Assembly: GCA_025362635.1 (NCBI GenBank)
Contig: JANYFO010000161.1
Coordinates: 1 to 57,722 of the forward strand
Reading direction: 5' to 3'
DNA: 57,722 nt
Origin: Gemmatimonadaceae bacterium
Lineage (GTDB): Bacteria; Gemmatimonadota; Gemmatimonadetes; Gemmatimonadales; Gemmatimonadaceae
The notes under the pieces were generated by a model that saw only the letters and a program-made list of their open reading frames with translations, did no database searches and was not told the DNA's origin. The position numbers and the translations under genes were made by a program. Every line of letters starts with the position of its first letter. Position 1 is the first letter of the stretch. Shown one piece after another: positions 2,724-36,602 of this stretch.

Positions 2724-2768
2724 GTACCTCTCCAACGCATATGTTTGGCCAGCACAGCAACCGCATAA

Positions 2769-2850
2769 GACACGGATAAACTGAACGGACACCAGCGGAA
2801 CCGCATGGATACGACACCGGCAACGCCTTCTGTTGTTCGGTGTATCCGCG
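2769..2850. repeat. REP-like degenerate repeat/hairpin element, copy 1
   Basis: GACACGGATA...GAACGGA core shared with 38744-38770; imperfect stem GGATAC..ACACCG / CGGTGTATCC. Confidence 0.4.
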
Positions 2851-2904
2851 AGTCGTCAGCGTGTTTCTGATCTTACTTTAAGTGTGCTTCAGCTATCGTT
2901 GGGT

Positions 2905-3324
2905 CTATGGACGTTTTGTTGGCGTCGCGGTTTTGCGTATTGCAGTCGGTGCGTCGACAACGAACGAGAACTCGCCGCGCATCGGGTGACCGTCGCTTCC
3001 TGCCGCTTGCCATTTCACGGTATACCGGCCGGCCGTCAGTGGTGTGACAGTCTTTGCAACGAGCGTTTTTTCGTCGCTTGCATTTCTGCGCAGCGAGTCA
3101 AGTATCACGGGTTTCTGCGCGGCACCGAACAGCGTCAGTTTACTGAGCGCGAGTGTGATGTTCTCATTAAACATGACGGCAATCTCGACTGGTGCAGCGG
3201 CGAGATGACTGTTGGCGGTTGGCGTCGACTTCACCAAGCGCGGATGTGCCGACGCCTGTTGTAGTGGAAGGGCGAGCGCGACGGCCGTTACGAGCGCAGC
3301 AGTGTATCGAGACATCCGTAACAT
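2905..3324 (-). CDS. copC: CopC periplasmic copper-binding protein
   Basis: Signal peptide ending ASA, then mature N-terminal His (HPRLVKSTP) and DGH motif (SDGHPMRG); start could be ATG 3315. Confidence 0.92.
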   Translation of the reverse strand: MLRMSRYTAALVTAVALALPLQQASAHPRLVKSTPTANSHLAAAPVEIAVMFNENITLALSKLTLFGAAQKPVILDSLRRNASDEKTLVAKTVTPLTAGRYTVKWQAAGSDGHPMRGEFSFVVDAPTAIRKTATPTKRP

Positions 3325-3352
3325 CCTCGTTGGAAGTGGTAATGCGCGCGAC

Positions 3353-3371
3353 TTTACAGTATGTAAAATAC
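3353..3371. promoter_or_regulatory. Palindromic operator candidate TTTACAGTATGTAAA(ATAC) upstream of copC
   Basis: Perfect 6-3-6 inverted repeat, AT-rich in GC-rich DNA; related copies at 5038, 11965, 33381 and 36451. Confidence 0.6.
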
Positions 3372-3414
3372 ACGGACGCCGAACGAATGTGCCAGTGCGA
3401 CGTGTTGTGACCGT

Positions 3415-4431
3415 TTACGCATCGCGGTGGGGGCATGGTGCGTTGAAGCGATGGTTGCCGAGACAGAAGAGGTGACTGAACACGGACTCGCCGACATGCG
3501 AGCAATGATGCATCTCGCCGATCATGGCTTGGCCCTCAGGAAGCGGGTGGAGCACGATAACGCCAGAGGTCCAGACGGCAACCAGCGCCAACGCTGCTGC
3601 GGCAATGGCACGCCGAGAGACGTGTGAGCCGACCGTCGCATCTTCGCCGGCAAGGCGGCGGATTCGACGTTCGAGGAGATCGCTGCGTTGAAATCCCACC
3701 GCTGGTTCGAGCGGACCGAGATCGGCGCCGGCCATGCGCAAAATGGCGGAGGCAAGCGGAAGGGAGTAGCGCTGTGCCGCGTGATCGTCGGCGGCGATTT
3801 CCGCCTCGTCAGCGAGGTCATCGACGAGGCGCCGGATGGCGGGTAGCCAGAACAGCGTGGCGGCGAGCGTTCGCAGTGCGAAGAGTCGTAGCGGATCACG
3901 ACGCTCTACGTGCGCGATTTCGTGCGCGAGCACGGCTTCGAGTTCGCTCACACTCAACACATCCGGTAAGGACTTGGCCACATACACGCGAGGTCGCCAC
4001 CACCCTGCAGTGAATGCAGGATTCGGAAGACCGTCAACCACGCGGACGCGGTGCACGGAGAACCCGAGCTGACGTATTGCTGCAACAAGTCGCACGTCTG
4101 AATGCGCAGGCTCGATGTGCAACGCGCGCATCGTGGCTGCGTAGCGCCACGCCGCTCGCGCTCGTTCAACGACGGCGAAGGCAATGCCGACGAGCAGCAA
4201 TCCGTGAAACATTCCGTGCACGGGCGCCATCAGATGGTGCAAGGCGATCATGCAAAATGGACCTAAATGTTCGAGCGACGCCGGCAGCCAACGCACGGCA
4301 CCAATGAGATGATGTCCAAAGACTGGACTGATGCTAAGAACCAGCAGGGTCGCTAGTGCTAACAAAACGCGCTGACGGTGTTGCGCCTCTCGCCGCGCGA
4401 GCGCGGCAGGGACTACTGAGTCAACGCGCAT
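3415..4431 (-). CDS. M56 (BlaR1/MecR1-like) zinc metallopeptidase without a penicillin-binding domain
   Basis: HEIAH (HExxH), E-x-A-A-D, TM helices; directly downstream of a BlaI-family gene; start likely ATG 4431 or GTG 4440. Confidence 0.88.
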   Translation of the reverse strand: MRVDSVVPAALARREAQHRQRVLLALATLLVLSISPVFGHHLIGAVRWLPASLEHLGPFCMIALHHLMAPVHGMFHGLLLVGIAFAVVERARAAWRYAATMRALHIEPAHSDVRLVAAIRQLGFSVHRVRVVDGLPNPAFTAGWWRPRVYVAKSLPDVLSVSELEAVLAHEIAHVERRDPLRLFALRTLAATLFWLPAIRRLVDDLADEAEIAADDHAAQRYSLPLASAILRMAGADLGPLEPAVGFQRSDLLERRIRRLAGEDATVGSHVSRRAIAAAALALVAVWTSGVIVLHPLPEGQAMIGEMHHCSHVGESVFSHLFCLGNHRFNAPCPHRDA

Positions 4432-4444
4432 TTGTCGCACGCGA

Positions 4445-4909
4445 TCAGCCGTCCTTGCGCTCGCGCAGTTTGCGGCGAATGAGGAGCGCGAGCTCTTCAA
4501 GTTTCGCTGGGTCACGTTCGGCGAGCACGTCTACAAATGACGAAGCGACCGCATCAGGACCGAATGATAGAATGCCTTCAACGACGCGTCGCGATACGTG
4601 CGACATGAACGCCGATTCGTCGAGCAGCGCCGAAAAGTGAAATCGATCATCCTTGCGCACGCGCTTGAGCACCCGCTTGGCCACTAATCGGTTGAGCACG
4701 GTAATCGTGGTCAATGGAGAGACTTCGTGCTCAAGCACGATGTGCTCGTGCACTTCCCGCGCTGTCGCGGGTTGTCCGAGCGCCCACACCGCGCGCAGGA
4801 TACGGGCTTCGAGATCGCCGAGCACTTTCGACAGCCCTTCGGCCGAGAGCCGCACAGTGTCCTGCAACTTGGGGCGGGCTATGGTGTTGCGCTTCTGCTG
4901 ATTGATCAC
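4445..4909 (-). CDS. BlaI/MecI/CopY-family transcriptional repressor
   Basis: LGDLEARILRAVW...TAREV...TTITVLNRLVAK winged-helix pattern. Confidence 0.9.
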   Translation of the reverse strand: MINQQKRNTIARPKLQDTVRLSAEGLSKVLGDLEARILRAVWALGQPATAREVHEHIVLEHEVSPLTTITVLNRLVAKRVLKRVRKDDRFHFSALLDESAFMSHVSRRVVEGILSFGPDAVASSFVDVLAERDPAKLEELALLIRRKLRERKDG

Positions 4910-4936
4910 GGTGCGAAGGGCCAGAGAATGTTCGTT

Positions 4937-4955
4937 CTACACCGTAGGGTAGTAG
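4937..4955. promoter_or_regulatory. BlaI-type operator candidate CTACACC-GTAGG-GTAGTAG
   Basis: Imperfect inverted repeat in the blaI-like/tolC divergent gap; resembles my recollection of the actinobacterial BlaI box TAC[GT]AC-N5-GT[AC]GTA. Confidence 0.45.
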
Positions 4956-5035
4956 GTGATTAATCCTGTGTAAAGCGAACGCGCGGCGGTGCGCTGTGCA
5001 GTTGACATGGGTTCGTCGTATCCCTTTTATTCGTC

Positions 5036-6409
5036 ATGTATTTTATGCACCGTCAAAAGCGCGCGACTGTTGTGCTCGCGGCCATACTCGCTTCGTCCGT
5101 GTTCTTCGGGGCCTGTGTGCCTTCCGCGTCACGACAGGGGCTCACGCCTGTTGCCACGCTGCTCACCGAACGTGGGGCAGCGGCATCATCGCTACTGCTC
5201 GCCGATTCTGTGCTCGGACCTCACGCGATCCCTGCAGGTCCGCTGGTATTAGACACGGCAGTGCGGATTGCTTTGTTGCGCAGTCCGCACGTGCGCGTGG
5301 TGCTGGCGGACGTTGGTCTTGCGGCGGCCGATCTTTGGCAGGCCAGTCGAATTCCCAATCCTGTCGTCGATCTACTCCGTGGATTTCAAAGCGGTGGCGG
5401 CGTTGGCATCACCAATGTTGGAATTGGTTTTTCCATCGTCGCCGCATTGCAGACACCGATGCGACGTCGTATCGCGCAAACTGAACTTCATAGTGCCGAA
5501 CAACGCGTGGCCAACGCGGTTTACGACGCCATGATTGATGTGCAGCGCGCGTATGTGGACGTGCAGTACGCACAACAAAATTTGGAACTACAGCAATCGG
5601 TGGCCGTCGGCACCGCAGCATCGACCACAGTAGCGCAAGCGCTTCGTGCCGCAGGCAATGTGTCGGAACTGGCGCTGGCAAGCGAAGAGGCGGTATCGAC
5701 GCAGAGTGTGGCTGACGTGTCAGCGGCCGAGTCGGCACTGTTGATCGCGCGCGCAGAACTTGGTCGGCGTCTTGGCGCTGGCGTCGGCGATACGCTGTGG
5801 ACAATTGGGGAGCGACTTGCTGATCCGACGCTAGATCGTTTGGTGATCGCGCGCATCGATTCGCTGACAATTGCGCGTCGTCTTGACGTGGCAGCAGCGC
5901 GCGACCGTGCGCAGTCGGCCGCAGCGGCGCTCGGACTGAGTGCTCGGTTTCGTTTTTTGCAAGACGGCACGCTGGGCGCGTTTTGGGAGCGTGATCCAGA
6001 CGGACGTTTTGTCGGGCCATCGGCGTCGATTCCGTTGCCGTTGTTTAACGGCGGCGGAGCGGGCGTTGCCAAAGCCCGTGCATCGCTGCAACAACGGACG
6101 GCAGAATACGATGCGCTCGTGGTCGATGCGCACGCTGAGGTGCGCGCCGCGATTGCACGCGTCGACGGTGCGCGACGCCGCGCGGTGCAGATTCGTACGG
6201 CTGTGTTGCCAACACGGCGCCGTGTGCTGCAAGAGTCGCAGTTGCAAGTGAACGCGATGGCGTTGCCGGTCTTCGCGCTGTTGCAAGCGAAGCAAGCGGA
6301 GATCGAAGCTGGTCGCATGTATCTCGACGCGCTGCGCGACTATTGGGTTGCGCGCGCAGAGCTCGAACGCGCATCGGGTGGTTCGCTGCCCGCAGGGAGA
6401 GCGCCGTGA
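5036..6409 (+). CDS. TolC-family outer-membrane lipoprotein (copper-resistance type)
   Basis: Lipobox-like FFGAC, two OEP-like helical repeats, SIPLPLFN strand; overlaps the MCO start. Confidence 0.85.
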   Translation: MYFMHRQKRATVVLAAILASSVFFGACVPSASRQGLTPVATLLTERGAAASSLLLADSVLGPHAIPAGPLVLDTAVRIALLRSPHVRVVLADVGLAAADLWQASRIPNPVVDLLRGFQSGGGVGITNVGIGFSIVAALQTPMRRRIAQTELHSAEQRVANAVYDAMIDVQRAYVDVQYAQQNLELQQSVAVGTAASTTVAQALRAAGNVSELALASEEAVSTQSVADVSAAESALLIARAELGRRLGAGVGDTLWTIGERLADPTLDRLVIARIDSLTIARRLDVAAARDRAQSAAAALGLSARFRFLQDGTLGAFWERDPDGRFVGPSASIPLPLFNGGGAGVAKARASLQQRTAEYDALVVDAHAEVRAAIARVDGARRRAVQIRTAVLPTRRRVLQESQLQVNAMALPVFALLQAKQAEIEAGRMYLDALRDYWVARAELERASGGSLPAGRAP

Positions 6410-6426
6410 ACGACGAAGAAAGAACG

Positions 6427-7827
6427 ATGTCGCGTCGCGAGATGATGCGGCAGAGTGCCGCGACGATTGCGGGTGGCGCCGTCGCGCTCGGCGCTGCTCC
6501 AGTGTTTGCACAAGATCATTCGCAAATGTCGGGCATGCAGATGAAGGCGATGCCGAAGGTGCAGCCAACCAATCCGGCGCGCGGCAAAGTGCGGCTGGGG
6601 AAAGCCGCGAGTCCGGGTATGCCTGGACACGATTACACGCCGGTGATCGTGCCAAACGGTCGCACCCTGCCGTTTCGCGTGGTGAACGGTGTGAAGGTGT
6701 TTCATCTCGTCGCGGAAGTCGTCAAGCACGAATTTGCACCGGGCCTGGTGTCGGAGTGCTGGGGCTACAATGGCGACACGCCCGGTCCAGTGATTGAAGC
6801 CGTCCAAGGCGAGCGCGTGCGCATTTACGTGACGAATCATTTGCCGGAGCCCACGACGGTGCACTGGCATGGCATCATCTTGCCTTCCGGCATGGACGGT
6901 GTGTCGGGACTGAGCCAAGCACCGATTCCGGTGAACGCCACGTTCAAGTACGAATTTGTCTTGCCGGATCACGGCACGTTCATGTACCACACGCATCACG
7001 ATGAGATGGTACAGCAGGGACTCGGATTGATGGGCATGTTCGTTGTGCATCCCCGCGATCCCGTAAGGCGTCCGCAGCGCGACTTCGTGCTGTTGTCTGC
7101 CGAATGGTTGGTGCGCATCGGATCATCGCGTCCCGATCCGAACGAGATGGTGGACTTCAACGTTTTTACATTCAACGGCAAGGCGTATCCTGCGACGGAG
7201 CCGCTACAAATGCAGTTGGGTGAGCGCGTGCGCATTCGTTTCGGCAATCTCAGCGCGATGAGTCATCATCCAATTCATGTTCACGGATTGCGGTGGCGCG
7301 TCGTGGCGACGGACGGCGGCGACATTGCGGAAGCTGGCCAATGGCCGGAGTCGACTGTGCTCGTGCCTGTTGGCACAACGCGTACGGTTGAATTTATGGC
7401 GGACAATCCGGGCGACTGGGCCGTGCACTGTCACATGACGCATCACGTGATGAATCAGATGGGGCACAACGGAACGAACCTGATTGGCGTGGACGCGGAG
7501 AAAGTCGATGCGGCCGTCGGCACGTTGCTGCCGAGTTACATGACGATGGGCAGTGCAGGCATGAGCGGGATGAGCAGCATGGGCATGCCGTCGCCGAAAG
7601 GGTCGATCTCGATGTTGGGTGGTGCAGGTCCGCACGGCGCGATTGATATGGGCGGCATGTTTACCGTGCTCAAGGTTCGAGAGCACTTGCCGAAGGGCGG
7701 CGATCCTGAGTGGTATGTCAATCCGCCGGGCACGGTGGCTGATGAAGCCACGGCTGATGAACTCAAGCGTGATGGCGTGGTGGTTGGCGCGGCGGTGACG
7801 ACGCCGATGCACAAGCATTCGCCGTAG
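6427..7827 (+). CDS. Tat-exported two-domain multicopper oxidase with Met-rich tail
   Basis: SRR Tat signal; HWHG, YHTHH, HPIHVHG and HCHMTHH..M copper motifs; alternative start GTG 6406. Confidence 0.9.
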   Translation: MSRREMMRQSAATIAGGAVALGAAPVFAQDHSQMSGMQMKAMPKVQPTNPARGKVRLGKAASPGMPGHDYTPVIVPNGRTLPFRVVNGVKVFHLVAEVVKHEFAPGLVSECWGYNGDTPGPVIEAVQGERVRIYVTNHLPEPTTVHWHGIILPSGMDGVSGLSQAPIPVNATFKYEFVLPDHGTFMYHTHHDEMVQQGLGLMGMFVVHPRDPVRRPQRDFVLLSAEWLVRIGSSRPDPNEMVDFNVFTFNGKAYPATEPLQMQLGERVRIRFGNLSAMSHHPIHVHGLRWRVVATDGGDIAEAGQWPESTVLVPVGTTRTVEFMADNPGDWAVHCHMTHHVMNQMGHNGTNLIGVDAEKVDAAVGTLLPSYMTMGSAGMSGMSSMGMPSPKGSISMLGGAGPHGAIDMGGMFTVLKVREHLPKGGDPEWYVNPPGTVADEATADELKRDGVVVGAAVTTPMHKHSP

Positions 7828-8352: not shown

Positions 8353-8411
8353 TTCGTGCAGTAACGTCGCGACGATCGTTGGTCGCGGTGCCCCCTTCTT
8401 CGCGAGCGAGA

Positions 8412-12725: not shown

Positions 12726-14786
12726 TTATGTGGGCGTCAGTTTCGTACGCTTGAGCAACAGCGCATTGATTGCCACGACAAGCGTGCTTCCGGACATAGA
12801 GAGCGCGGCGACTTCGGGGCTGAGTACGAAGGGATATAGAACGCCGGCTGCGAGTGGAAATGCAATGGTGTTGTAGCCCACCGCCCACCACAGGTTCTGC
12901 CGCATTTTGCGGAGCGTCGCACGCGAGAGTTCAATGGCGGCAACGATGTCGTACGGATCACTTTTCATCAGCACGACATCGGCACTTTCCATTGCGACAT
13001 CAGTGCCAGCACCAATAGCAAATCCAACATCAGCCTGTGTGAGTGCCGGTGCATCGTTCACACCGTCGCCCACCATCCCGACTTTTTTGCCGTTGCTCTG
13101 CAACGCTTTCACCTTCTCCGCTTTCTGTGCGGGCAATACATCAGCCAGCACGATGTCGATGCCGAGATCCGCGGCGATGCGTTTCGCGGTGGCTGCGTTA
13201 TCACCAGTCAACATCACGACTTCGATTTTCTGTTCGCGCAGTCGTGCGACGGTCGCTGTCGCTGTGGGTCGAATCGCATCAGCGATGGCGATGAGGCCGA
13301 TCACTCGGCCCGCTTGTGCAACGTGCACGACGGTGCGACCATCTCCTTGCAATCGTGTCGCATCGGCCTCGAGCGCACCGAGCGAGAATTTCTGCGTGTC
13401 CATCAACAATCGATTGCCGAGAAATACCGTGCCGCCAATTGTCTCGGCGCGTGCGCCCATGCCATCGAGGCTTTGAAATCCCGTTGGTGCCGTCACGGAA
13501 AGTTTTGCTGCGCGGCGTACAATCGCTTGCGCCAGTGGGTGATCAGATCCTTGCTCGACCGCGGCAGCAGCGATGAGCAGCGCATCCTCCGAAACGTTAT
13601 CCGCCAGCACGAGGTCAACGACTTCGGGCTGCCCGACGGTGAGTGTACCGGTCTTGTCGAAGACAATCACGTTGAGTTTCGTCGCGTCTTCCAACGCCGC
13701 AGCATTCTTGAATAGAATGCCGTGCGTTGCGCCGAGCCCCGTTCCGACCATCACGGCCATTGGTGTGGCTAGTCCCAACGCGTCCGGACACGCAATCACA
13801 AAGACGGTGATGGTCATTGTCACGGCAAAGAGTAGTGGTTGTCCGATCCACCAGAACCAGACGGCAAAGGTGGCGAGGCCAATCACGATTGCCGCAATAA
13901 CGAGCCACTGCGCCGCTTTGTCGGCAAGGAGTTGGGCTGGCGCTTTTGAGCTTTGCGCTTGTTGTACAAGCTTGACGATTTGCGCGAGCGCTGAGTCAGC
14001 GCCGACTTTGGTTGCTTTATAGCGAAAGCTGCCGCTCTTGTTGATGGTGGCGCCAATGACAGTGGATCCCGGATTCTTTTGGACTGGCATGGACTCGCCA
14101 GTCAGCATGGATTCGTCAACGAGTGAGTCGCCAGACTCAATCGTTCCGTCAACGGGAATCTTGTTGCCGGGCCTGATGACGACAATTTCGCCTGCCACAA
14201 CTTCCGCTGTTGGGACCTGAACTTCGACGCCGTTGCGCAGCACCGCCGCCATGGTGGGCGTGAGATTCATCAACGCCTTAATCGCGGACGATGCGCCGGC
14301 GCGTGCGCGCATTTCGAGCCAGTGGCCAAGCAGGATGAAGACTAATAACACAGAGACTGCTTCGAAAAATTGACCTCCCGCTTCGAAGAAGAACGTGCTT
14401 CCGACGCTAAAGAGATATCCGGTGCCAACGCTGAGAACGATCAGCGCGGACATTCCCAATACGCCCTTTCGAAGCTGGCGCCACGCCGAAACGAAAAACG
14501 GCCAGCTGGGATAGAGCACCGCGGCGCTTGCGAGAAAAAAGAGCCAGAGACCGAGTCTGACTCCGAACGGTGGAGTCGGTGGTGTGAAGACGCCGCCCAT
14601 AGGGGCGTAGATGAAAATTGGTATCGTAAAGAACAAGCAGATCCAGAAGCGATTGCGCATGTCGCGAACCATGGCGGACATGTCCTCACCACTGTGGCCC
14701 ATGTCATGCGCCATGTCGGCGGCCATCGCGGGGGGCGCGTTTGGTGGCGCGTCATGCCCTTCGTGGACTTCGTGACCGGTGTTCAT
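12726..14786 (-). CDS. Copper-type P1B ATPase (CPD motif, His/Met-rich N-terminus)
   Basis: [30 protein letters not shown] and MxxS(T) motifs. Confidence 0.92.
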
Positions 14787-15642: not shown

Positions 15643-15854
15643 AGTATGTCGATGTGAATGCGTGGTTGTGGGCGGCCTTTGATGACGCACGTATGACAGC
15701 AACGTCTGCAAGAAGCATGACGCGCATACGAGGTGAGACTGAAGTTGCTCTAGGTAATTCCCGAGGCTGACGATTGTGCTTGGCCGAGATAGTGTCACAT
15801 ATGACCTTCCCGGAGCACACGCCGTTTTTCGCACGCAGATCACGGAGACTTCAT

Positions 15855-15998
15855 ATGTCATGGTTGATCACGAACTGGTTCTGGCTGCTGATCTTTTTCG
15901 CATTCATCGCGATGCATCTCTTCGGCCATGGAGACCATGCGGGTCACGGCACGCACGACCAATCGTCGAAGCAACAGGGTAAGGACGCCGATGCTTAA
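15855..15998 (+). CDS. Small His-rich membrane protein (DUF2933-like)
   Basis: MSWL..NW..L.F..F.AMHLFGHG.H.GH; GGAG RBS upstream. Confidence 0.75.
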   Translation: MSWLITNWFWLLIFFAFIAMHLFGHGDHAGHGTHDQSSKQQGKDADA

Positions 15999-17515: not shown

Positions 17516-17884
17516 TTAGCTCTTCTTTGCGAGCGTGTGAATGTATTTCACCGTTGCTTCGATCTCGGCGGCTGTCAGCTTGTCCTTGAACGGCAACATA
17601 TCGCCTTTGCCATTGGTGATAGCCGAGATAAACTCTTTGTGCTGGTGCGTTGCAAAGAATGTAGAATCGACAAACGTTGCAATGTTTTTGTACTGCTGGC
17701 GTGCCGCTTTGGTCGGAGCGCCCAAAACGCCGTGACACTGCTTGCAGTTTTTCGCATACAACGCTTTGCCGTCGACCTCTTGCGGCACCAGTATGGCTTG
17801 TTTCAAGCGGCTGCCGTGCAAAGGTGCGCGTAAACTGAACACGGCCGCTGCTGCGACAACCATTGAAAGCGAGAATACGTTCAT
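17516..17884 (-). CDS. Periplasmic monoheme class I cytochrome c
   Basis: Signal peptide, GKALYAKNCKQCHG, distal Met in GKGDMLPF. Confidence 0.9.
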   Translation of the reverse strand: MNVFSLSMVVAAAAVFSLRAPLHGSRLKQAILVPQEVDGKALYAKNCKQCHGVLGAPTKAARQQYKNIATFVDSTFFATHQHKEFISAITNGKGDMLPFKDKLTAAEIEATVKYIHTLAKKS

Positions 17885-17944
17885 GGGGATGTACCTGAGT
17901 TGAAATGGATAGGGATCACGTCGTTGTATCGCGGCGACGGTATG

Positions 17945-19138
17945 CTAGAACGCTACGAAGAGTTGGAATGAAATACCGTTTCTTCGCGGAGCGCGCGTAA
18001 GCTGCGGTAAGTCGCGAAAATACTCTACGCCGAGACGTAGATATTCAGGTAAGGTTGCCGGTATCACGCTGCCCACGACGACGCGACGCAATCCGTCGTC
18101 GGATTCGTTACGGTTGGGGTCGAGAAATTCGTAGCGCCCAAATACGGTCCAGTGAGTCTTCGGCATGGAATATCCGCCGTATACCCAGTACCCAGAGCCA
18201 GTCGCGGTGACGCTTGTAATTGCTGTCGTCAGCGGTAGGCGTGAATCATTGCTGTAGACATATCCACCCAGCACTTCAAAAGGGCCGAGAAATTTGTTCG
18301 CCGTCGCGGCAAGCCTGTAATAGCGCGAAGACAAATCAGCAGCGGTTGCATCGAGCCCTGCGATGCGCCCGAAGTATCCGATTGCAGTAACGCCAGAACC
18401 AGCGTCATCCCACATAAACTGATTTGAAATCAGCACATCGTTTTTTGTGCTTGCTCCACCTTCTGAGCCATCAGACGTCGGAGCGCTCAAGCCATTGAGT
18501 ATCTGAACGGACGTTCGGTTTTTTCCACCAATGACATAAAAGGCTTCAACTCCTGCTTGATCGCCAGCAAAACGAAACGGAATACCAGCAGTCGTTGGCT
18601 CGGCGAGCGGTAACGGCACAAGAATACCGGTCGGACGGTCGAAGCCCGCGAGCGCACCACCAACAAGCAAGTGTCCCGTTCCAGCACGAACGCCGCCGTA
18701 CCCGCCTTCTTTACCCCACACGCCGCTCACAATCGCTACGAGATCCACGTTGCCTGCTTCTTGACGTTCAAGTTCGAAGTATGCCCCGTAGTTTTTGCCG
18801 AGACCGCCCGCTGCGAAGACGCTTACGGCGGGTGATGAAAGTCCATTTACATCCGCGGGTTCGCGTTGCGTTTTGGAAAGGCTGTACTGAAGAATGCCGC
18901 GCGTGGAGAAATACTCTTCCATCTTTTTGACTTCCATATTTTCACCGATCTCGTTCGGCATTCGGTAGCCAGCCCATTTAAACGAAAATCCGGTTGCGTT
19001 CAGTCGCGGGACCGCTGGGTAATGGCAACTAGCACACTTCATGTTGTATTTTCTCGCCCACGCCGGAAGCGCTGCGCTTGTTTCGGGTGCAAGCGCGATC
19101 AGAGTTAGAGCAGTGAGCACGAGGGTGCTTTGGCGCAT
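17945..19138 (-). CDS. Cyc2-like fused monoheme cytochrome c / outer-membrane beta-barrel
   Basis: Signal peptide, LPAWARKYNMKCASCHYPAVPRL..G..FK..GY, amphipathic beta strands, C-terminal Phe; GGAGA RBS before ATG 19138. Confidence 0.75.
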   Translation of the reverse strand: MRQSTLVLTALTLIALAPETSAALPAWARKYNMKCASCHYPAVPRLNATGFSFKWAGYRMPNEIGENMEVKKMEEYFSTRGILQYSLSKTQREPADVNGLSSPAVSVFAAGGLGKNYGAYFELERQEAGNVDLVAIVSGVWGKEGGYGGVRAGTGHLLVGGALAGFDRPTGILVPLPLAEPTTAGIPFRFAGDQAGVEAFYVIGGKNRTSVQILNGLSAPTSDGSEGGASTKNDVLISNQFMWDDAGSGVTAIGYFGRIAGLDATAADLSSRYYRLAATANKFLGPFEVLGGYVYSNDSRLPLTTAITSVTATGSGYWVYGGYSMPKTHWTVFGRYEFLDPNRNESDDGLRRVVVGSVIPATLPEYLRLGVEYFRDLPQLTRAPRRNGISFQLFVAF

Positions 19139-19199
19139 GCGACGATCTCCACGGTGAATCGAGACACAAACAACAAACAGAGCAGGCGCGTTGCCTGCG

Positions 19200-20774
19200 C
19201 TACTGAGTGGGTTGCTTACGTGCATTTGTTGACGCACTTTTTTCGTTCTTCGTTGCACCCGCAGCACCGTCGGATTTTTGCAGATCTGGAAAGGTGTCGT
19301 GTATTTGCGGTGTAATTTCTGCGCCTGGTGATCCTCTGAGCGTCGCGAGATAACGAGAGACCTCTTCAATTTCTTGGTGACTAAGTACGGGTGACCCGAA
19401 CGCGGCCATTCGAGAATTCGGATGGAAGCGACGGGGTTCTTCGATGAAGCTGTGTAGCCACGCCGTGGTGTGGTGCGCCCCGATTTGCATGAGTGCTGGA
19501 CCTTCATCGCCTCCCTTGTTCATTACGACGTGGCATCCCAAACATTGGCGTTGAAACAGTGCACGTCCCGCGCGTTCGGCTGAGCTCAGCTGCCGCCCTG
19601 TTTCTGGCGCAATCGTGGGTTGTACGTCTCGTACGGCCGCTCCAACAAGAAGCGCGGAGCCGCCGAGCAAAACGGAGAGCGCAGCGAGACTGCCGGGCCG
19701 ATGGAGAAGATTTCGACGGCTGCCGCGATCAAAAAACGGCAGACCGAGTAGCGCGATTACGAGTAGTAGCGGGACACCGACTGCAATAGTGCTTTCCATC
19801 GAGCCCGGAAACAGCTTTAGCAACTGATAAAAGGGGAGAAAGTACCATTCAGGATGCGGGATGTACGAAGAGTCACTCGGATCGGCTGGAGGCTCGAGCG
19901 GCGCGCCAACGGTCACCGCCAAGATCAGTACAGCGAGCGCCACGACGAGCGACGTGATGACGTCCTTGGCAATGATGTCGGGCCAAAATCGTACGCCCGT
20001 ATGTTTTGACGCTGCGTACGCGGTGCCGTAGTACGCTGGATATACCGGGTCGCTTGTCCGCTTCGGCGCCTTGTCCTCGAGCACGTCAGTACGAGGCGCA
20101 ATGCCTTGCCGTACTACAAGCATGAGGTGGAGCAGTAAGAGCGCGGCGAACAACACCGGCAGCCACAGCACATGGAACGCGTAAAACCGCGTAAGCGTCG
20201 CTGCGCCGAGTTGTGAGCCACCTTTCAGCATTTTGGCCATCGCGCCGCCTATCCATGGCGTTGTGCCCGCGATGCTCGTACCGACCTGTGTCGCCCAATA
20301 CGCCTTCTGATCCCACGGCAAAAGTGAGCCGGTAAATCCGAAACCAAGTACGAGAAAGAACAGTCCTACGCCAAAGAGCCAGTTGGCTTCGCGCGGATAT
20401 TTGTACGCACCCATGCTGAAGACGCGGATCATATGCGCCAGCACAAACACGACCATCAAACTCGCGCCCCAGCGATGCATTGCACGCAGCAATACGCCGG
20501 CGTTTACCTCGCGCTGCACATACTGAATGCTTTCGTATGCATGGTCTGGCGTAGGTGCGTAGAACGTGGCAAGCACGAGGCCCGTGACCACTTGAATAAG
20601 AAAAGCAGTCATGGCGGCACTTCCCAGCGTGTGCCACCACGTCAACCGATCTGGAACTTCGCGGTCTAAGAGCGTGCGCCGAATGCCGACCACGTCAATG
20701 CGTTGGTCAAGCCAGCCGCGTTTCACCGATGACGTCGCGGAGTCGTTCGATAAAGGTGGAACTACATCGCTCAT
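19200..20774 (-). CDS. Cytochrome b (b6 + subunit IV-like) fused to a C-terminal cytochrome c
   Basis: Four heme-b His (MHRWGAS..AHM; FH..LH), LPWDQKAYWA, PEWY, CLGCH with downstream Met. Confidence 0.92.
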   Translation of the reverse strand: MSDVVPPLSNDSATSSVKRGWLDQRIDVVGIRRTLLDREVPDRLTWWHTLGSAAMTAFLIQVVTGLVLATFYAPTPDHAYESIQYVQREVNAGVLLRAMHRWGASLMVVFVLAHMIRVFSMGAYKYPREANWLFGVGLFFLVLGFGFTGSLLPWDQKAYWATQVGTSIAGTTPWIGGAMAKMLKGGSQLGAATLTRFYAFHVLWLPVLFAALLLLHLMLVVRQGIAPRTDVLEDKAPKRTSDPVYPAYYGTAYAASKHTGVRFWPDIIAKDVITSLVVALAVLILAVTVGAPLEPPADPSDSSYIPHPEWYFLPFYQLLKLFPGSMESTIAVGVPLLLVIALLGLPFFDRGSRRNLLHRPGSLAALSVLLGGSALLVGAAVRDVQPTIAPETGRQLSSAERAGRALFQRQCLGCHVVMNKGGDEGPALMQIGAHHTTAWLHSFIEEPRRFHPNSRMAAFGSPVLSHQEIEEVSRYLATLRGSPGAEITPQIHDTFPDLQKSDGAAGATKNEKSASTNARKQPTQ

Positions 20775-21304
20775 GTCTCGACCTTTTCAGGAACGCCACT
20801 GCGAAACGTCTGGTAAATGACGTGCAGTTCTCCGTTCTCTACTTTGACCGGGAGCGTGTCGAGTGCGCGGGGTGGTGGGCCGCCGATCACGGCTCCTGTT
20901 TTCATGTCGAACAGTCCGTGGTGACACGGACAGTGATAGCGCGATTTGTCGGCGTCGAAGTTGTAGCCGCATCCGAGATGCGTGCAAATGCCGCTATAGG
21001 CGGTGAATTTTGCGCCGTCTTCGGTATACAACCACACTGATCGTAAAGCGCGACTTTCCACCCACGCATCATTCGCAACTTCAACAAAGTCGACTTTGAT
21101 GGGAACGCCTACGTCGAGCGTGCTGATATCATCAGCGACCTTCACCCAACTTTTCGGTGACACCTTGCGTAACGCTGGGGCTAAAAATGCCGCGAGCGCT
21201 GGAGTTCCAATCACCGTGGCAGCGATTGCGGCACCGATCCCACTCGCCCACGTAAGAAACCGGCGTCTGCGCATCACATCGTGGTCGGGTAGTGCATCAG
21301 ACAT
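20771..21304 (-). CDS. Rieske 2Fe-2S subunit
   Basis: RRRFL Tat anchor, CTHLGC and CPCHHG boxes, GPPPRAL; ATGA overlap with cytochrome b. Confidence 0.93.
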   Translation of the reverse strand: MSDALPDHDVMRRRRFLTWASGIGAAIAATVIGTPALAAFLAPALRKVSPKSWVKVADDISTLDVGVPIKVDFVEVANDAWVESRALRSVWLYTEDGAKFTAYSGICTHLGCGYNFDADKSRYHCPCHHGLFDMKTGAVIGGPPPRALDTLPVKVENGELHVIYQTFRSGVPEKVET

Positions 21305-21356: not shown

Positions 21357-24300
21357 TCATGGCGTTGATGCTGCGACCACTTTGAGTGATGGGGCCGATG
21401 CAAGCACACCAACGGCCGAGCGTTTTCGCACATCGTTCGCAAGCGCCCACTGCTTCCAGAGTGAGTAAATCGCGGGGATGACTAAGAGCGTGAGTGCGGA
21501 GCTTGAGATCATTCCACCAACCATTGGTGCAGCGATGCGCTTCATGACACTGGCACCCGCTCCGTTCCCCCAAAGAATCGGAAGCAGCCCAGCCATAATC
21601 GCCGTAACGGTCATCATTTTCGGTCGTACGCGTTCAACGGCGCCTTCCATTACCGCGGCGTACAGATCGTTAACGTCAGCGTTTTCTCGGGCTGCCTGTT
21701 TGGCCTTCCACGCTTGGTCGAGATAAATCAGCATCACGACGCCCGTCTCGGCCGCCACACCATTAAGTGCGATGAAGCCAATCGCCACCGCGACAGACCA
21801 GTTGTAACCAAGCAACCAGACGAACCAAATGCCGCCAACTAACGCGAATGGGAGCGAGAGCATGACGATGAGCGTCTCGCCAATACTCTTGAAGTTGAAA
21901 TAGAGCAGTAGAAAAATGATGGCCAACGTTGCCGGGATCACGAGCATCATCTTAGCCTGCGCGCGCTGCATGTACTCGTACTGACCACTCCATACCATGC
22001 TGTATCCCGCGGGCATCGTGACCGCGCGCGCAACTTCGCGCTGGGCCTCCGCGACATAGCCGCCGATGTCGCGTCCGACGACATCGACATACACCCACGC
22101 CGTTGGCACTGCGCCTTCCGTGCGAACCACCATCGGACCAGAAACTTGTTTGATGGTGGCAACTTGCCCGAGCGGCACTTGAGCAACATTGCCCGCCATG
22201 GCAGAACCACCCATCGCACCGCTCGCTGGCCGCGCGGGCATCGCGCCACGTCCGACATCGGCACCTCCAGCACCATGGCTGACGGGCACGAGTACCGCAG
22301 CGAGTCGCTCTGGCGTGTCACGCAACTCCAAGGGATAGCGGACACGCACGCCATAGCGTTCGCGTCCTTCCACTGTTTGCGTAATCGTCATTCCACCAAT
22401 CGCGGTAGCGATCACGGCCTGTACATCACCGACGTTCAATCCATGTCGCGCTGCGGCGACGCGATCAATATCGATGTCGAGGTAATATCCGCTGGCCGCT
22501 CGTTCGGCGAACGCACTTCGCGTTCCCGGCACCGTTTGTACCGATTTTTCGACCTCTTTCCCGATGCGTTCCAACTCAGTGAGATCCGGACCGAAGATCT
22601 TGATGCCAACGGGTGTTCGAATGCCAGTGGCCAGCATGTCGATGCGACCTTTGATTGGCATGGTCCAGGCATTCGTGACACCGGGCATTCGTGTTGCCGA
22701 GTCCATTGCGCCCAGCAAGCGATCGTAGGTCATGCCACGCCGCCATGTGTCGACCGGACGGAGCGTGATGGTGGTCTCGAACATGTCGAGACCTGCGGGA
22801 TCGGTCGCGGTGTTTGCGCGACCCGCTTTGCCCCAGACGTGATCCACCTCGGGGAACGACTTTAAAATGGAGTCTTGTATCCGAAGGATTTCGCGGTCGC
22901 GCGCAACACTCGCACCAGGCAGTGTCGTTGGCATAAACAGAATGGTGCCTTCTTCGAGCGGCGGCATGAATTCGCTTCCGACCGAGGCCCACGGAATCCA
23001 CGTGAGCACCAATACCACACCCGCTATTCCGATTACGGGCCAGCGGTGTCGCAGCACGAACGTGATCAACGGTCGATAAGCGCGAATCAACCAGCGGTTG
23101 ACTGGGTTGGCCTGCTCACGCCAAATGCGGCCGCGAATAAAGACACCCATCGTCACCGGCACTAACGTCACGCTGAGCAGACTCGCCGCCGCCATGGCGA
23201 ATGTTTTCGTGTATGCGAGCGGCTTGAATAGTCGCCCTTCCTGGCCTTCCAACGCGAAGACGGGAAGGAAGCTCACCGTGATAATGAGCAACGAGAAAAA
23301 AAGTGCGGGGCCGACTTCCTGCGCGCTTTCCACGACCACACGCCAGCGCTCGATCGTTGTGAGCACACTCGCATCGAGCGTGCGCGCGTTCGATGTAAGC
23401 CCGCTTGCGCGCTCCTTCGCCGTGATTGCGCGCTCAAGGTGCTTGTGCATGTTCTCAATCATGACGATTGCCGCGTCGATCATCGCACCGATCGCGATCG
23501 CGATGCCACCTAACGACATGATGTCGGCGCCAACTCCTACCCACCGCATGGCGATGAACGCGATGAGGATACCGATCGGCAGCGTGAGAATTGCCACGAG
23601 TGCAGAACGTGCATGCAGTAAAAAAATCACACACACAAACGCGACGATGAGGCTTTCTTCGAGCAACTTGCCGCGCAGCGTTTCAATGGCGCGTTCGATC
23701 AGATCGGAGCGATCATATACGGGGCGCACAACGACGCCGGGTGGTAGCCCCTGTTGCACCAGTGCGAGTTTGGCCTTCACGTTCTTGATGGTTTCAAGCG
23801 CGTTTTGTCCAAAGCGCATGACGACGATTGCGCCAACCGCATCTCCGCGCCCATCGAGCTCCGCAACGCCCCGCCGAACGCCCGGACCGATCGTCACTCG
23901 GCCCAGTTCTGCGATGCGGACTGGCGTGCCGTTCGGTGTTGCACCGACAACGACGTTTTCAATGTCGCTCAAGTTTTTCAGATAGCCCAGACCACGCACC
24001 ATGTACTCACGTTCGGACAATTCCATGACCATAGCGCCGATGTCGCTATTCGCACTTTGCAGCGCACTCATCACGCGCGTTACAGGAATGCGAAACGCCA
24101 ACAACTTTGCTGGATCGAGATCGATCTGATACTGCTTCTCAAATCCGCCGATGGTTGCAACTTCAGAAACACCCGGCACCGCAGTCAACGCGTAGCGGAG
24201 ATACCAATCCTGCAAGCTCCGCAATTGCGCCAAATTGAGACGGCCTGTCGTGTCTTCGAGTGCGTACTGATACACCCATCCCAGTCCAGTCGCGTCAGGA

Positions 24301-24689
24301 CCCAGCGTGGGCGTCACCACCGTTGGAAGTTTTCCTTTCAGGCCGTTCAAATACTCCAGCACGCGCGAGCGCGCCCAATACAAGTCTGTGCCGTCTTCAA
24401 AGATCACGTAGACGAACGACACACCGAAGAACGAATAGCCGCGGACGGTGCGAGCGCCGGGCACTTTCAGCATCTCTGCCGCCACGGGATACGTGACTTG
24501 ATCCTCAACGATGCGTGGCGCTTGCTCGCTGTATTCGGTTTGCACAATGACTTGCACGTCGGACAGATCTGGCAGCGCTTCAAGTGGTGTGCGTCGTATC
24601 GCCCACGTGCCGCCGACAATTGCTGCGAACGTGAAGAGAAACACCAGCAACTTGTTGTCGACGGACCACGCGATGATGCGCTTCAGCAT
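21357..24689 (-). CDS. cusA: CusA-type HME-RND Cu(I)/Ag(I) efflux permease
   Basis: ALPDLSDVQVI, GPDATGLGWVYQY, EFMPPL.EG..LFMP, AVERVRPKMMT. Confidence 0.95.
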   Translation of the reverse strand: MLKRIIAWSVDNKLLVFLFTFAAIVGGTWAIRRTPLEALPDLSDVQVIVQTEYSEQAPRIVEDQVTYPVAAEMLKVPGARTVRGYSFFGVSFVYVIFEDGTDLYWARSRVLEYLNGLKGKLPTVVTPTLGPDATGLGWVYQYALEDTTGRLNLAQLRSLQDWYLRYALTAVPGVSEVATIGGFEKQYQIDLDPAKLLAFRIPVTRVMSALQSANSDIGAMVMELSEREYMVRGLGYLKNLSDIENVVVGATPNGTPVRIAELGRVTIGPGVRRGVAELDGRGDAVGAIVVMRFGQNALETIKNVKAKLALVQQGLPPGVVVRPVYDRSDLIERAIETLRGKLLEESLIVAFVCVIFLLHARSALVAILTLPIGILIAFIAMRWVGVGADIMSLGGIAIAIGAMIDAAIVMIENMHKHLERAITAKERASGLTSNARTLDASVLTTIERWRVVVESAQEVGPALFFSLLIITVSFLPVFALEGQEGRLFKPLAYTKTFAMAAASLLSVTLVPVTMGVFIRGRIWREQANPVNRWLIRAYRPLITFVLRHRWPVIGIAGVVLVLTWIPWASVGSEFMPPLEEGTILFMPTTLPGASVARDREILRIQDSILKSFPEVDHVWGKAGRANTATDPAGLDMFETTITLRPVDTWRRGMTYDRLLGAMDSATRMPGVTNAWTMPIKGRIDMLATGIRTPVGIKIFGPDLTELERIGKEVEKSVQTVPGTRSAFAERAASGYYLDIDIDRVAAARHGLNVGDVQAVIATAIGGMTITQTVEGRERYGVRVRYPLELRDTPERLAAVLVPVSHGAGGADVGRGAMPARPASGAMGGSAMAGNVAQVPLGQVATIKQVSGPMVVRTEGAVPTAWVYVDVVGRDIGGYVAEAQREVARAVTMPAGYSMVWSGQYEYMQRAQAKMMLVIPATLAIIFLLLYFNFKSIGETLIVMLSLPFALVGGIWFVWLLGYNWSVAVAIGFIALNGVAAETGVVMLIYLDQAWKAKQAARENADVNDLYAAVMEGAVERVRPKMMTVTAIMAGLLPILWGNGAGASVMKRIAAPMVGGMISSSALTLLVIPAIYSLWKQWALANDVRKRSAVGVLASAPSLKVVAASTP

Positions 24690-24700
24690 GTCGTTCGCTC

Positions 24701-25975
24701 CTACCGCGCAGGCGGAGCGGGCGTGTTGCCCTTCGGCGTGTTGCCCTTCGGCGCGACCAACTTCGGCGGAGCGGGGGCGGCGATCTGCATGCCCGGCATG
24801 TTGCCCATGCCGCCAATTGCCGAACCGAGATTCGATTCTGCATCGACGAGGAATGTCGCCGAGGCGACCACGGATTCTCCCGCACGTAGCCCGCGAAGAA
24901 TTTGGATCCGCGTTTCGTTCGCTGTGCCAACAACAACTTCTCGCGGCGTCAGCGCTCCCTCTGCGCCATGCACGAAAACCAAATCGCGCGTGCCCGTTGA
25001 TAGCAGCGCGGCACGCGGGAGATTAAGCACGTTCGCACCGTTCGCGCTTTCGACACGAATAGTGGCGTACATTCCCGGTTTGAGCGCAAAGTCCCGATTG
25101 GCCATTGCCACTCGAATGCGCGCTGTTCGCGTATCAGCGTTAATGGTCGGATAGATGTAGGTGATGCGGCCGGTCCGCGTTGCACCAGGAATTGCTTGAA
25201 ACTCAGCGTGTACTACTTGGCGGGCATGAACCGTGGCGAGATCACGTTCAAACACTTCGCCTTCAATCCAGACAACACTGAGATCTGCCACTTTATAGAG
25301 CGCGTCTCCGGCCATGACTTTTTGCCCAGACAGCACATTTTTTTCGACGACCACTCCACTCACCGGCGCACGCAGCACTACGGACTTTTGAATTTGTCCC
25401 GTCTGCTCAATCCGCTCTATATCAGTCGCCGAGATATCCCAGTATTGCAGACGTTTGCGGGCGGCGTCACGAAGCGCGGTCGCGTTGCGTTGCGCCTCGG
25501 TTGTTGCACCGGCAACATCCTTCTGCAGCTGAGCCGCCAGCAGCAACTCCTGTTGCGCGGCGACGAGCATCGGCGAGTAAATAGACAGCAGCGGATCGCC
25601 CGCGCGAACCGATTGACCCGTGTAGTTCACGAAGAGTTCGTCGATCCATCCGTCGAGTTTTGGTGCAATCACGCGGACACGCGTTTCGTCGTAATTGACC
25701 TGCGCGACTGTGCGTACCTCGGTCACGAGCGCGCTCATGACGGCCGTGGTGTATGTCACGCCGATGCGCTGGGCCTGGTCGCGCGTAAGCATCACCGGTT
25801 GCGCTCCCTTGGTTGGCGCTGCTGCGTCGCCGTCCAGAGTGGCAGCGGTAACGATGGGACGCCTTGTCGCGAACCAGGCAAAAAGCGCGGCGGCGGCCAA
25901 CGCGAGTACGATTACGATGGCGATTGTCGCGCGTGAAACACGCGATGACTGTGCGCTGCCAAATGGATCAGTCAT
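24701..25975 (-). CDS. cusB: CusB-type periplasmic adaptor (MFP)
   Basis: GWIDEL, YSPMLVAAQQE, LKPGMY, FLVDAES; between cusC and cusA. Confidence 0.9.
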   Translation of the reverse strand: MTDPFGSAQSSRVSRATIAIVIVLALAAAALFAWFATRRPIVTAATLDGDAAAPTKGAQPVMLTRDQAQRIGVTYTTAVMSALVTEVRTVAQVNYDETRVRVIAPKLDGWIDELFVNYTGQSVRAGDPLLSIYSPMLVAAQQELLLAAQLQKDVAGATTEAQRNATALRDAARKRLQYWDISATDIERIEQTGQIQKSVVLRAPVSGVVVEKNVLSGQKVMAGDALYKVADLSVVWIEGEVFERDLATVHARQVVHAEFQAIPGATRTGRITYIYPTINADTRTARIRVAMANRDFALKPGMYATIRVESANGANVLNLPRAALLSTGTRDLVFVHGAEGALTPREVVVGTANETRIQILRGLRAGESVVASATFLVDAESNLGSAIGGMGNMPGMQIAAPAPPKLVAPKGNTPKGNTPAPPAR

Positions 25976-27378
25976 TACTCGCGACCCGGTAGCAGAATGG
26001 GCGCTGCGTGCGCGTCGAATAATTGGCGTCCAATAAGCATTTCTAGGTCCGCAAATGTTTTCCCTTGCTCGGCGTCGAGAACGAAGAGCTCTTGCTGATA
26101 CCGATTCACCGTCATTTGGTTGTCCAGCAGTGTCATTAAATTCACCTGCCCCACGCGGTACGCGGCGAGTGATGAGCCAACCGCCGCCTGTGCTTGCGGA
26201 ATGATCGTACTGCGATAGAGTCGGCCAAGGTTTCGTGCACGCACAACGGTTGCATACCGTTCGGCCACGAGAGCGCGTGTCTGCGCGCGCATCGACTGCA
26301 GTTCCGCGCGCACCATGGCGTTCATTGCTTGGGACTCTTCGCGCATTTTGAGCTGCCGACTTCTCGCGAAGACGGGTAGCGTTGCACCAAGCATCAGACT
26401 TCCCATACGCTCGCGCTGCATCACGCCGGCGCGTTCGCCGTATTGAATACCGACCTGCAGATCGGGCCAGATCTCTTTCGCCGCCAGTTTCGTCGCGGCA
26501 TCAGCGGCGCGGACGTCTGCAAGACCAGCACGAATCATCGGACGATTCTGATCAGCGAGCGCCATCAGAGAATCGAGTGTCGGCAGCGTCGCGGGAAAAT
26601 TTGGCAACTGGGGAGACGCGAGCGTGGAGTCGGGCACGCGATCCAACAGTCCGGCAATCATGGCGGTGGCGGCGACACGCATCGTACGCATGCGCACGAT
26701 GTCCTCTGACATTTTTGCAGATTCCACATGCGCCTTGAGTACATCAGATTGGCGCCCATCGCCGACTGCATACATGGTCTGTGCGGTCGAGGCGATGTTT
26801 TCAAGCAACCGCTGCGTTGTAATGGCGACCACCAGCGAGCGGTCCGCTTGAAAGAGGTCATAAAATGCCATGGCGACACGGCTGCGGACCTCCCACCGCA
26901 CGTCAGCTACGCGCTCACCTGCGGCATCCGCCTGCGCGGACGACACGCGTCCGGCCAGCGTTAGTTTGCCCGCGACCGGCACCATTTGCATGAATTGCAA
27001 TTGCGTCATGCCCAGCGGATCCATCGGCGCCAGTGACGGAAGCGAACGATTCATCAAGCCGAGCTGTAGCTGTGGGTCTGGTGGCCGCTTCGTGCCCGGC
27101 ACACGAGCCGCCGCTGCTCGCGCAATCGCTCGGGCCGCCGTGATCTGCGGATTTCGTTGCTCGACAATATCGTATAGCGTTCCAAGTCGGAGCGCCGTTG
27201 TGTCATCCTGTGCGGAGGGCACACGAATAAAGGTTGTGTCGATCTGCGCAGGTGCGGCTTGCGCAACAGAAACCGTGCAAAATGTCGTACAGATTGCCAC
27301 AAAAATGATTCGACTTCCACGTGACTCCCATTCACGGAGACAAGTGACGGAGGAACAGTTGCTCGCGCGTCGAATCAT
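25975..27378 (-). CDS. cusC: CusC/TolC-type outer-membrane factor
   Basis: PDPQLQLG..N, OEP helical repeats, Met-rich loops; stop overlaps the cusB start. Confidence 0.85.
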   Translation of the reverse strand: MIRRASNCSSVTCLREWESRGSRIIFVAICTTFCTVSVAQAAPAQIDTTFIRVPSAQDDTTALRLGTLYDIVEQRNPQITAARAIARAAAARVPGTKRPPDPQLQLGLMNRSLPSLAPMDPLGMTQLQFMQMVPVAGKLTLAGRVSSAQADAAGERVADVRWEVRSRVAMAFYDLFQADRSLVVAITTQRLLENIASTAQTMYAVGDGRQSDVLKAHVESAKMSEDIVRMRTMRVAATAMIAGLLDRVPDSTLASPQLPNFPATLPTLDSLMALADQNRPMIRAGLADVRAADAATKLAAKEIWPDLQVGIQYGERAGVMQRERMGSLMLGATLPVFARSRQLKMREESQAMNAMVRAELQSMRAQTRALVAERYATVVRARNLGRLYRSTIIPQAQAAVGSSLAAYRVGQVNLMTLLDNQMTVNRYQQELFVLDAEQGKTFADLEMLIGRQLFDAHAAPILLPGRE

Positions 27379-36471: not shown

Positions 36472-36487
36472 AGGCACGTATTATGCA
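36472..36487 (+). promoter_or_regulatory. Possible sigma54 promoter AGGCACG-TATT-ATGCA
   Basis: GG(-24)/GC(-12) spacing correct; two mismatches to TGGCACG-N4-TTGCA. Confidence 0.35.
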
Positions 36488-36602
36488 CTTCAGGCGTTTT
36501 GCTCACGTACCACCGGAAGCAAACTTCCCGCTGGAGATCAGAATGTTACAGGATACAAAGGGCGCCTGCCGACGTCCACGTGCCTACGCCCTCGTCTTCC
36601 CA

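Follow-up and report, generated by a model that had tools for sequence, protein, structure and literature searches.

Genes for Cyc2-like cytochrome-porins are widely taken as markers of iron oxidation. In one of the closest described systems, that of Acidithiobacillus ferrooxidans, the genes for a Rieske/cytochrome b complex, a carrier in the periplasm and a porin of the Cyc2 type are divided between two operons, rus and pet, which also encode rusticyanin and an aa3 oxidase. Electron flow has been proposed in both directions for this system (PMC8790237, PMC10654088), including an anaerobic Fe(III) route from the quinone pool through bc1, CycA1 and rusticyanin to Cyc2 (PMC8790237). Here we analyse a 57,722-nt stretch of a Gemmatimonadaceae genome (contig JANYFO010000161.1 of assembly GCA_025362635.1; the whole stretch is called the window), in which the same parts form one four-gene cassette without rusticyanin or oxidase and with the acceptor cytochrome fused to cytochrome b. 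The cassette would constitute an envelope-wide path, and we put the probability at about one half that electrons leave the cell along it, with menaquinol as donor and a soluble oxidised metal as acceptor.

Other described systems share some of these features. The extHIJKLMNOPQS cluster of Geobacter sulfurreducens, implicated in the reduction of the toxic elements selenite and tellurite, also brings together a porin-like outer-membrane protein, c-type cytochromes and a paired Rieske protein and cytochrome b, but it differs in an ExtI porin without fused haem, a rhodanese, 10-12-haem cytochromes and a short split ExtP cytochrome b (PMC5877670). Since the window cytochrome b scored 219 bits against the ExtP profile (cut-off 290), and neither rhodanese nor multihaem families were found among the 54 window open reading frames (ORFs) scanned, membership of the Ext type was rejected. 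Rus-like clusters of Cyc2 and an oxidase have been described for Gemmatimonadetes (10.1101/2020.03.01.968255). Such an operon was rejected as well, because no haem-copper oxidase gene (COX1) lay next to this Cyc2 in any of the 80 genome loci found; 78 metagenome loci yielded two weak COX1 matches (26%). CymA, CbcL/MtrH/MtoC as well as ImcH, named in a 2018 survey as the only three known inner-membrane partner families, are likewise quinone-reacting membrane proteins encoded by conduits of the mtrAB/mtoAB type (PMC6295460). In contrast to these, the partner found here is a complete Rieske/cytochrome b complex that swaps among Cyc2, MtrAB and multihaem/barrel conduits. CusCBA with helpers of the CopG or CueO type resembles the window in having a Cu(I) pump beside an envelope redox protein; these helpers are, however, cuproproteins, and no haem-porin fed by a quinol complex appears in the parts of PMC7558416 covered. 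A description of the four-gene cassette was not found in the literature covered, which lacked most subscription papers and supplements (the tree files of 10.1101/228056 may hold relatives). The parts and both flow directions have precedent; the four-gene combination and its copper-island subclade appear to be new.

The first-pass annotation had placed four co-oriented, closely spaced genes about 50 nt past the stop of cusA, a heavy-metal pump gene. Their positions and the gap were verified, all four lying on the minus strand, and the protein types it had named (a Tat-Rieske protein, a cytochrome b with PEWY and a CxxCH domain, a barrel-like protein with one CxxCH, and a cytochrome c) were borne out by Pfam, by motifs and, for the barrel, by a predicted fold. 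The cusA gene ends at 21357 and is followed after 52 nt, at 21304, by the gene for a Tat-exported Rieske [2Fe-2S] protein (20771..21304; 177 aa; RRRRFL, boxes CTHLGC and CPCHHGLF, PF00355). This overlaps by 4 nt the cytochrome b gene, whose product is fused to subunit IV and to a monohaem cytochrome c (19200..20774; 524 aa; PF00033, PF00032 and C-terminal PF00034). The Cyc2-like fused cytochrome-porin comes next after 61 nt (17945..19138; 397 aa; one CxxCH, a PxWARKY variant, PxL and a predicted 16-strand barrel), and 60 nt further on stands the gene for a class I monohaem cytochrome c with a hydrophobic N-terminus, recognised by Pfam (17516..17884; 122 aa), which is likely to be the periplasmic shuttle. 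A longer, 520-aa reading of the porin ORF was dropped because it would overlap the cytochrome b gene by ~300 nt and homologues measure ~390-430 aa. Just past the cytochrome b stop, a hairpin followed by a T-rich run (19182-19198, minus strand) could attenuate the porin gene; the frequency of such sites is no higher than in shuffles, and a promoter/terminator scan of the window found nothing above shuffles (promoters 2 vs 4.3; terminators 12 vs 12.7).

Cytochrome b retains the haem-b ligands His100, His114, His201 and His216, assigned by spacing, and the PEWY motif of the Qo site. It has no Cys other than those of its single CxxCH, which leaves none for a haem ci, and the c-type acceptor is the fused C-terminal cytochrome c domain. 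The best PDB match of the Rieske protein is the Rieske subunit of quinol-cytochrome c reductase (3FOU/1NYK). In its box II, the Ser and Tyr of high-potential Rieske proteins, two residues that raise the potential, are replaced by Gly and Phe, as they are in 69 of 70 distinct Rieske sequences of the module, whereas the paralogue encoded elsewhere in the host genome retains Ser. In the yeast protein, mutating the Ser and Tyr positions lowers the potential by 130 and 65 mV, respectively (PMC12954380).

No Pfam or NCBIfam family matched the 397-aa Cyc2-like protein, and PDB sequence searches with its alignment gave no meaningful match and no solved relative. An AlphaFold2 model from a 120-sequence alignment (mean pLDDT 89.4, pTM 0.85) comprises a small helical N-terminal domain followed by 16 listed strands, and its top Foldseek matches are general porins such as PorB, OmpT, OmpC and OprP (TM ~0.5-0.57); the barrel that had been suspected from the sequence is thus predicted. 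A hydrophobic helix at residues 2-15 of the model resembles a signal peptide. The CxxCH (C35-C38-H39) is kept in 118 of 120 aligned homologues, and four residues past it stands the PXL motif P44-R45-L46. The N-terminal CxxCH, the PxL, the length above 365 aa and the 16-strand barrel are shared with A. ferrooxidans Cyc2, Mariprofundus Cyc2PV-1, Leptospirillum Cyt572 and Ghiorsea Cyc2TAG1_1 (10.1101/228056, PMC13741234, PMC13692758); at 397 aa, the protein also exceeds the length of at least 365 aa expected together with such a barrel. The motif AXPXFAR[Q/K][T/Y] upstream of CxxCH, which has been called unique to Cyc2 (10.1101/228056), is matched at every position except one, where Trp27 replaces Phe. 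We therefore name the protein Cyc2-like and not a formal member of Cyc2, and a literal PXFAR filter, as applied for the 1,593-sequence Cyc2 tree, would drop it. Trp is near-invariant at this position in the close Cyc2-like family, while Phe is common among more distant profile hits. Unlike known Cyc2 proteins, this one is accompanied by its own Rieske/cytochrome b complex instead of an oxidase, its host is likely a heterotroph, and its family often resides in copper islands. Met60 and His156 are conserved, and either may serve as the sixth haem ligand. The nearest relatives outside Gemmatimonadota are Nitrospirota proteins of ~30-39% identity.

The gene association within the cassette is more than chance. 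Among the genome loci assessable (those with 1 kb or more of sequence ahead of the porin gene), a module-type cytochrome b lies within 2 kb in 50 of 63, a count that is inflated and not independent because the genomes are kin and some loci identical; in an independent metagenome set, the same cytochrome b was nearby in 25 of 31 loci. The 63 belong to a set of 72 loci that was left of the 80 once seven Nitrospirota loci and one partial match had been set aside. Three loci (L012, L015 and L082) have, immediately upstream of the porin, a fusion of NrfD and cytochrome c in the place of Rieske/cytochrome b. This fusion is ~985 aa long and has two cytochrome c domains (L012:787-3741, L015:7005-9947, L082:10917 onward). 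Two Cyc2-like genes per locus were seen in L040, L058, L065, L015, L044, L063 and L082, in several cases one Trp-type family member and one of a more distant type. The cytochrome b gene is split in two frames in L017, L056/L085 and L080, which may reflect assembly error or decay. Named homologues and most related loci belong to Gemmatimonadota; one record titled Bacillota (L028) has the Rieske-cytochrome b-cytochrome c-porin cassette, nests among Gemmatimonadota sequences and is possibly misbinned. Both associations may extend beyond Gemmatimonadota: in the Nitrospirota locus L077, another kind of Rieske/cytochrome b comes after a relative of Cyc2, and in L072, also of Nitrospirota, a Cyc2 relative of 39% identity is immediately preceded by cusCBA-copA-like genes.

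To avoid selection on Cyc2, a survey was run from the cytochrome b side. Module-type cytochrome b (at least 59% identity; next matches ~40-46%) occurs in 29 of 301 phylum genomes, a set that here and below takes in the unpublished genome G155. In 25 of the 29, all of which were examined, an outer-membrane conduit lies within ~10 kb: this Cyc2 in six, a decahaem protein with MtrB in ten, a weaker MtrAB-like pair in one, a barrel-like protein of ~500 aa in seven, most of which also have multihaem cytochromes with as many as 21 haems, and a different Cyc2 in one. Three of the four without a conduit are on contigs shorter than 6 kb. The decahaem protein passes TIGR03508, and MtrB passes its Pfam cut-off and fails that of TIGR03509. 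Module cytochrome b forms one 68-row clade (SH-aLRT 99) in a quick tree that warns of long-branch joins outside this clade, and the host's other cytochrome b sits in a separate 8-row clade with a conduit at none of its 8 loci. Because 25 of 29 adjoin Cyc2, MtrAB or a multihaem/barrel cluster, this Rieske/cytochrome b clade seems to be specialised as an exchangeable partner, at the inner membrane, of surface electron transfer, and it is a candidate for inclusion among the few such partners listed so far. The quinone-to-surface wire proposed in the first-pass annotation gains strength from this, since the same clade adjoins MtrAB or multihaem/barrel clusters where this Cyc2 is missing.

Two points weigh against this interpretation. 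Among control loci (18 hand-picked from about 120 other matches, plus the host's own), 3 of 19, with another, split cytochrome b type, also adjoin the ~500-aa barrel, and therefore a conduit-adjacent Rieske/cytochrome b is not unique to the module clade. Moreover, the ~500-aa exported family (e.g. L096:10860-12353 and L015:14636-16114), which usually accompanies multihaem cytochromes, is likely the unnamed porin of a porin-cytochrome conduit and as such an unproven candidate. Members tested had no Pfam, NCBIfam or PDB match, and a single-sequence fold reached a pLDDT of 31. A strand-alternation score gave z 3.4-4.9 for this family but z -0.7 for the Cyc2-like protein; this score is weak, since it missed the Cyc2-like protein itself.

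The host genome, which is 90% complete, encodes a second Rieske/cytochrome b complex on contig C222, 37% identical to that of the cassette, and has matches to genes for subunits of ACIII on C71 and C168, ccm genes and one haem-copper oxidase. It gave no match to a bd oxidase and none to RuBisCO, other carbon-fixation pathways not having been searched. Members of the close Cyc2 family were found in 12 of 301 phylum genomes, the host among them, and in 0 of 14 genomes of the same genus; 11 of these 14 match cytochrome b only at a distant level, and none has the module type. The C222 complex, the ACIII genes and the lack of sharing within the genus rule out that the cassette is a sole, housekeeping bc complex, in agreement with its earlier placement outside core respiration. 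The distribution of the Cyc2 family implies that the cassette is accessory, present in a few percent of the sampled phylum genomes. Altogether, these data make it likely that the locus is a real, conserved, accessory cassette for surface electron transfer. Elsewhere in the host genome, contig C423 carries a gene pair for a dihaem and an octahaem cytochrome (8020-11087), the octahaem gene being unique in the ORF scan of the genome in that its frame has more than five CxxCH motifs.

The position of the cassette in a copper island had suggested a link to copper efflux. This held in part: for the Cyc2 version the association is well above background, whereas it was not seen, with the thresholds applied, for the MtrAB and multihaem versions, and Cus pumps almost never carry the cassette. 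In a distance test (12 kb, rounded coordinates, matches listed; two barrel-only rows, 16 cusA and 8 cytochrome b matches left out), Cu-type cusA lay near 4 of 12 close Cyc2 genes versus 2 of 125 distant ones and near none of 120 other cytochrome b matches, where the genomes with listed cusA hold only 69 of those 125 and 69 of those 120. Cu-type cusA is present in 11 of the 12 genomes with close Cyc2, compared to 154 of 301 overall. Of the Cyc2 loci, 32 of 72 have a core copper gene, as do 25 of the 49 that span at least 10 kb. In the Cyc2 subclade of the window (28 rows, two pairs of them identical; SH-aLRT 99), 20 of 28 rows are copper-positive, and six of the eight negative rows are on contigs shorter than 9 kb; outside it, 12 of 43 rows are positive. 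Depending on the locus, the copper genes are found upstream, downstream or in divergent orientation.

Several counts weigh against a functional link. No core copper gene was seen in 24 of the 49 long Cyc2 loci, nor, with thresholds applied, at any of 19 loci where module cytochrome b has another conduit (one of these, L106, has a multicopper oxidase by Pfam). Metagenome loci, which are redundant and at most 55% identical to the window Cyc2-like protein, have a copper gene in 5 of 19 long cases and 10 of 52 overall, and the cassette is near only 5 of 150 cusA genes among the matches listed. On these counts and those of the distance test, a copper link as a trait of the Rieske/cytochrome b clade or of Cyc2 at large was rejected. 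The cassette is not a required part of Cus either, as the four same-genus cusCBA loci fetched all lack it. All of the copper tallies are inflated by kinship among the genomes. The copper link is real but partial and subclade-specific. It probably reflects shared carriage in metal-stress islands; a functional role in copper or silver redox chemistry can be proposed only tentatively.

For the cassette as a whole, the following path is suggested. Its Rieske/cytochrome b complex has an intact catalytic core and belongs to a clade distinct from the host's other complex. By Q-cycle chemistry, it would oxidise quinol, conserve proton-motive force and reduce its own fused haem c, from which the small cytochrome c would ferry the electron over the periplasm to the porin haem, predicted at the periplasmic mouth of the 16-strand barrel. 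In the last and weakest step, this haem might reduce a soluble metal entering the pore, such as an Fe(III) chelate, Cu(II) or Ag(I). Quinol oxidation is the native direction of a Rieske/cytochrome b complex. For this reason, and because of the missing RuBisCO, the lack of COX1 in all 80 loci and the substitution by NrfD, outward flow appears favoured. It is favoured also by precedent, a quinone pool-bc1-cytochrome-Cyc2 route having already been proposed for Fe(III) reduction in Acidithiobacillus (PMC8790237). The Gly and Phe in box II of nearly all module Rieske proteins may be counted on this side too. Uphill flow would be of little use to a host without RuBisCO in a phylum whose marine members have been called likely heterotrophs (PMC11316326). 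With its own quinol complex, a likely heterotrophic host and a place in copper islands, the cassette offers a compact four-gene test case of whether Cyc2-like proteins also work outward or on other metals; if the outward path is real, a phylum common in soil and sediment has more surface redox chemistry than it has been credited with. For the subclade of the window, a more specific proposal is a menaquinol-fed outer-membrane cupric/silver reductase that would supply Cu(I) from Cu(II) to the Cu(I)-specific CusCBA pump encoded beside it, or deposit Cu/Ag at the surface. We regard this as unlikely; if true, a Cyc2-type protein would here work outward on a metal other than iron, and copper resistance would have a helper of a new class, whose Q-cycle conserves energy.

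Flow in the opposite direction would turn the cassette into an inward wire, in which Fe(II) or Mn(II) reduces the porin haem, the small cytochrome delivers electrons downhill to the host's oxidase, the Rieske/cytochrome b complex runs in reverse to reduce menaquinone, and the copper genes are mere neighbours. Much of what weighs against outward flow belongs here. In the Cyc2 proteins for which biochemical assays were found, with potentials of -130 to +560 mV, the transfer demonstrated runs from Fe(II) into the protein and not outward from it (PMC13741234, PMC13692758), and a natural Tyr-to-Phe Rieske protein is not lower in potential (PMC12954380). A low-potential Rieske protein would in any case ease uphill flow too and fits either direction, and models of iron oxidation in Acidithiobacillus and Mariprofundus assign uphill flow to the bc1 complex. 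A haem-copper oxidase is encoded by the host, and the same cytochrome b clade occurs with a decahaem protein and MtrB in 10 of 29 genomes; MtrAB with no obvious MtrC (no MtrC profile search was made) presumably resembles the inward conduits MtoAB and PioAB. An inward iron wire is at odds, however, with the lack of a RuBisCO match in the host and of an oxidase gene at all 80 genome loci, and it leaves the copper enrichment unexplained. The Nitrospirota affinity of the porin speaks against it as well, since Nitrospira Cyc2 has been placed in cluster 3, the cluster of most uncertain function. We consider this alternative rather unlikely.

The copper-positive loci of the window's subclade would also suit an inward wire for Cu(I), that is, a cuprous oxidase linked to the respiratory chain that yields less toxic Cu(II) without O2 on site and whose substrate would include Cu(I) freshly exported by CusCBA. 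Cu(I) oxidation has been proposed as the role of CopG, a periplasmic protein with links to copA and cusCBA (PMC7558416). Genes for DUF411 proteins occur in 7 of the 80 loci. We take DUF411 to be equivalent to CopG. Such downhill flow to an oxidase would need no dedicated Rieske/cytochrome b, though, and the mature porin, with just 3 His, 6 Met and two haem Cys, lacks a Met/His-rich copper site; together with the rarity of the cassette near cusA genes, this renders a Cu(I) oxidase improbable. Finally, there might be no surface wire at all, the complex and the small cytochrome being a spare respiratory branch to the oxidase or a periplasmic enzyme for stress and the haem-porin a co-transferred cargo or redox-gated pore. 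In line with this, 13 of the 63 assessable Cyc2 loci have no cytochrome b within 2 kb, and the islands bear other genes unrelated to the cassette, among them ppk2 and genes with lycopene-cyclase domains. It is difficult to reconcile with the outer-membrane conduits of three unrelated kinds beside 25 of 29 module-type cytochrome b genes and with a host that already has another Rieske/cytochrome b complex and ACIII genes, and we give it little credence. An outward path from menaquinol thus remains our preferred reading.

The copper genes of the window form two groups. Upstream of the cassette, on the same strand, are genes for a CusA-type heavy-metal RND pump (21357..24689; TIGR00914, 1147.6 bits, cut-off 701.45), a CusB-type membrane fusion protein (24701..25975) and a CusC/TolC-type outer-membrane channel (25975..27378), the latter two by profile matches. 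Met586, Met636 and Met685 of the pump presumably match the spacing of the E. coli Met triad. A copper-type P1B ATPase gene (12726..14786, minus strand; TIGR01511, 596 bits, cut-off 397) is part of the same region. The transmembrane metal motif of this ATPase is CPD, where CPC or CPH is usual in copper P1B ATPases, and it keeps YN and MxxS. A second copper cluster (1740..7827) contains copD, copC, a BlaR/BlaI-like pair, a TolC-like channel and a multicopper oxidase. The pair, a BlaR1/M56 peptidase and a BlaI-like repressor by copC/copD (3415-4909, minus strand), was found again at 4 of 80 Cyc2 loci and is a possible regulator of the copper island. Between the clusters lie genes for acetate kinase, phosphoketolase and ppk2 (8304-11962, plus strand; 14809-15861, minus strand); among the 80 loci, ppk2 recurs in three and xfp in two. 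The ends of the island are undefined, since no tRNA gene or convincing boundary repeat was found in the window, and the 54 ORFs scanned matched neither a transposase nor an integrase family. Further along, a DUF305 protein gene (36483-37280, plus strand) contains five degenerate repeats at 36695-36854, mostly 33 nt apart and rich in Met, Ser and Gly codons, which possibly encode a copper-binding linker.

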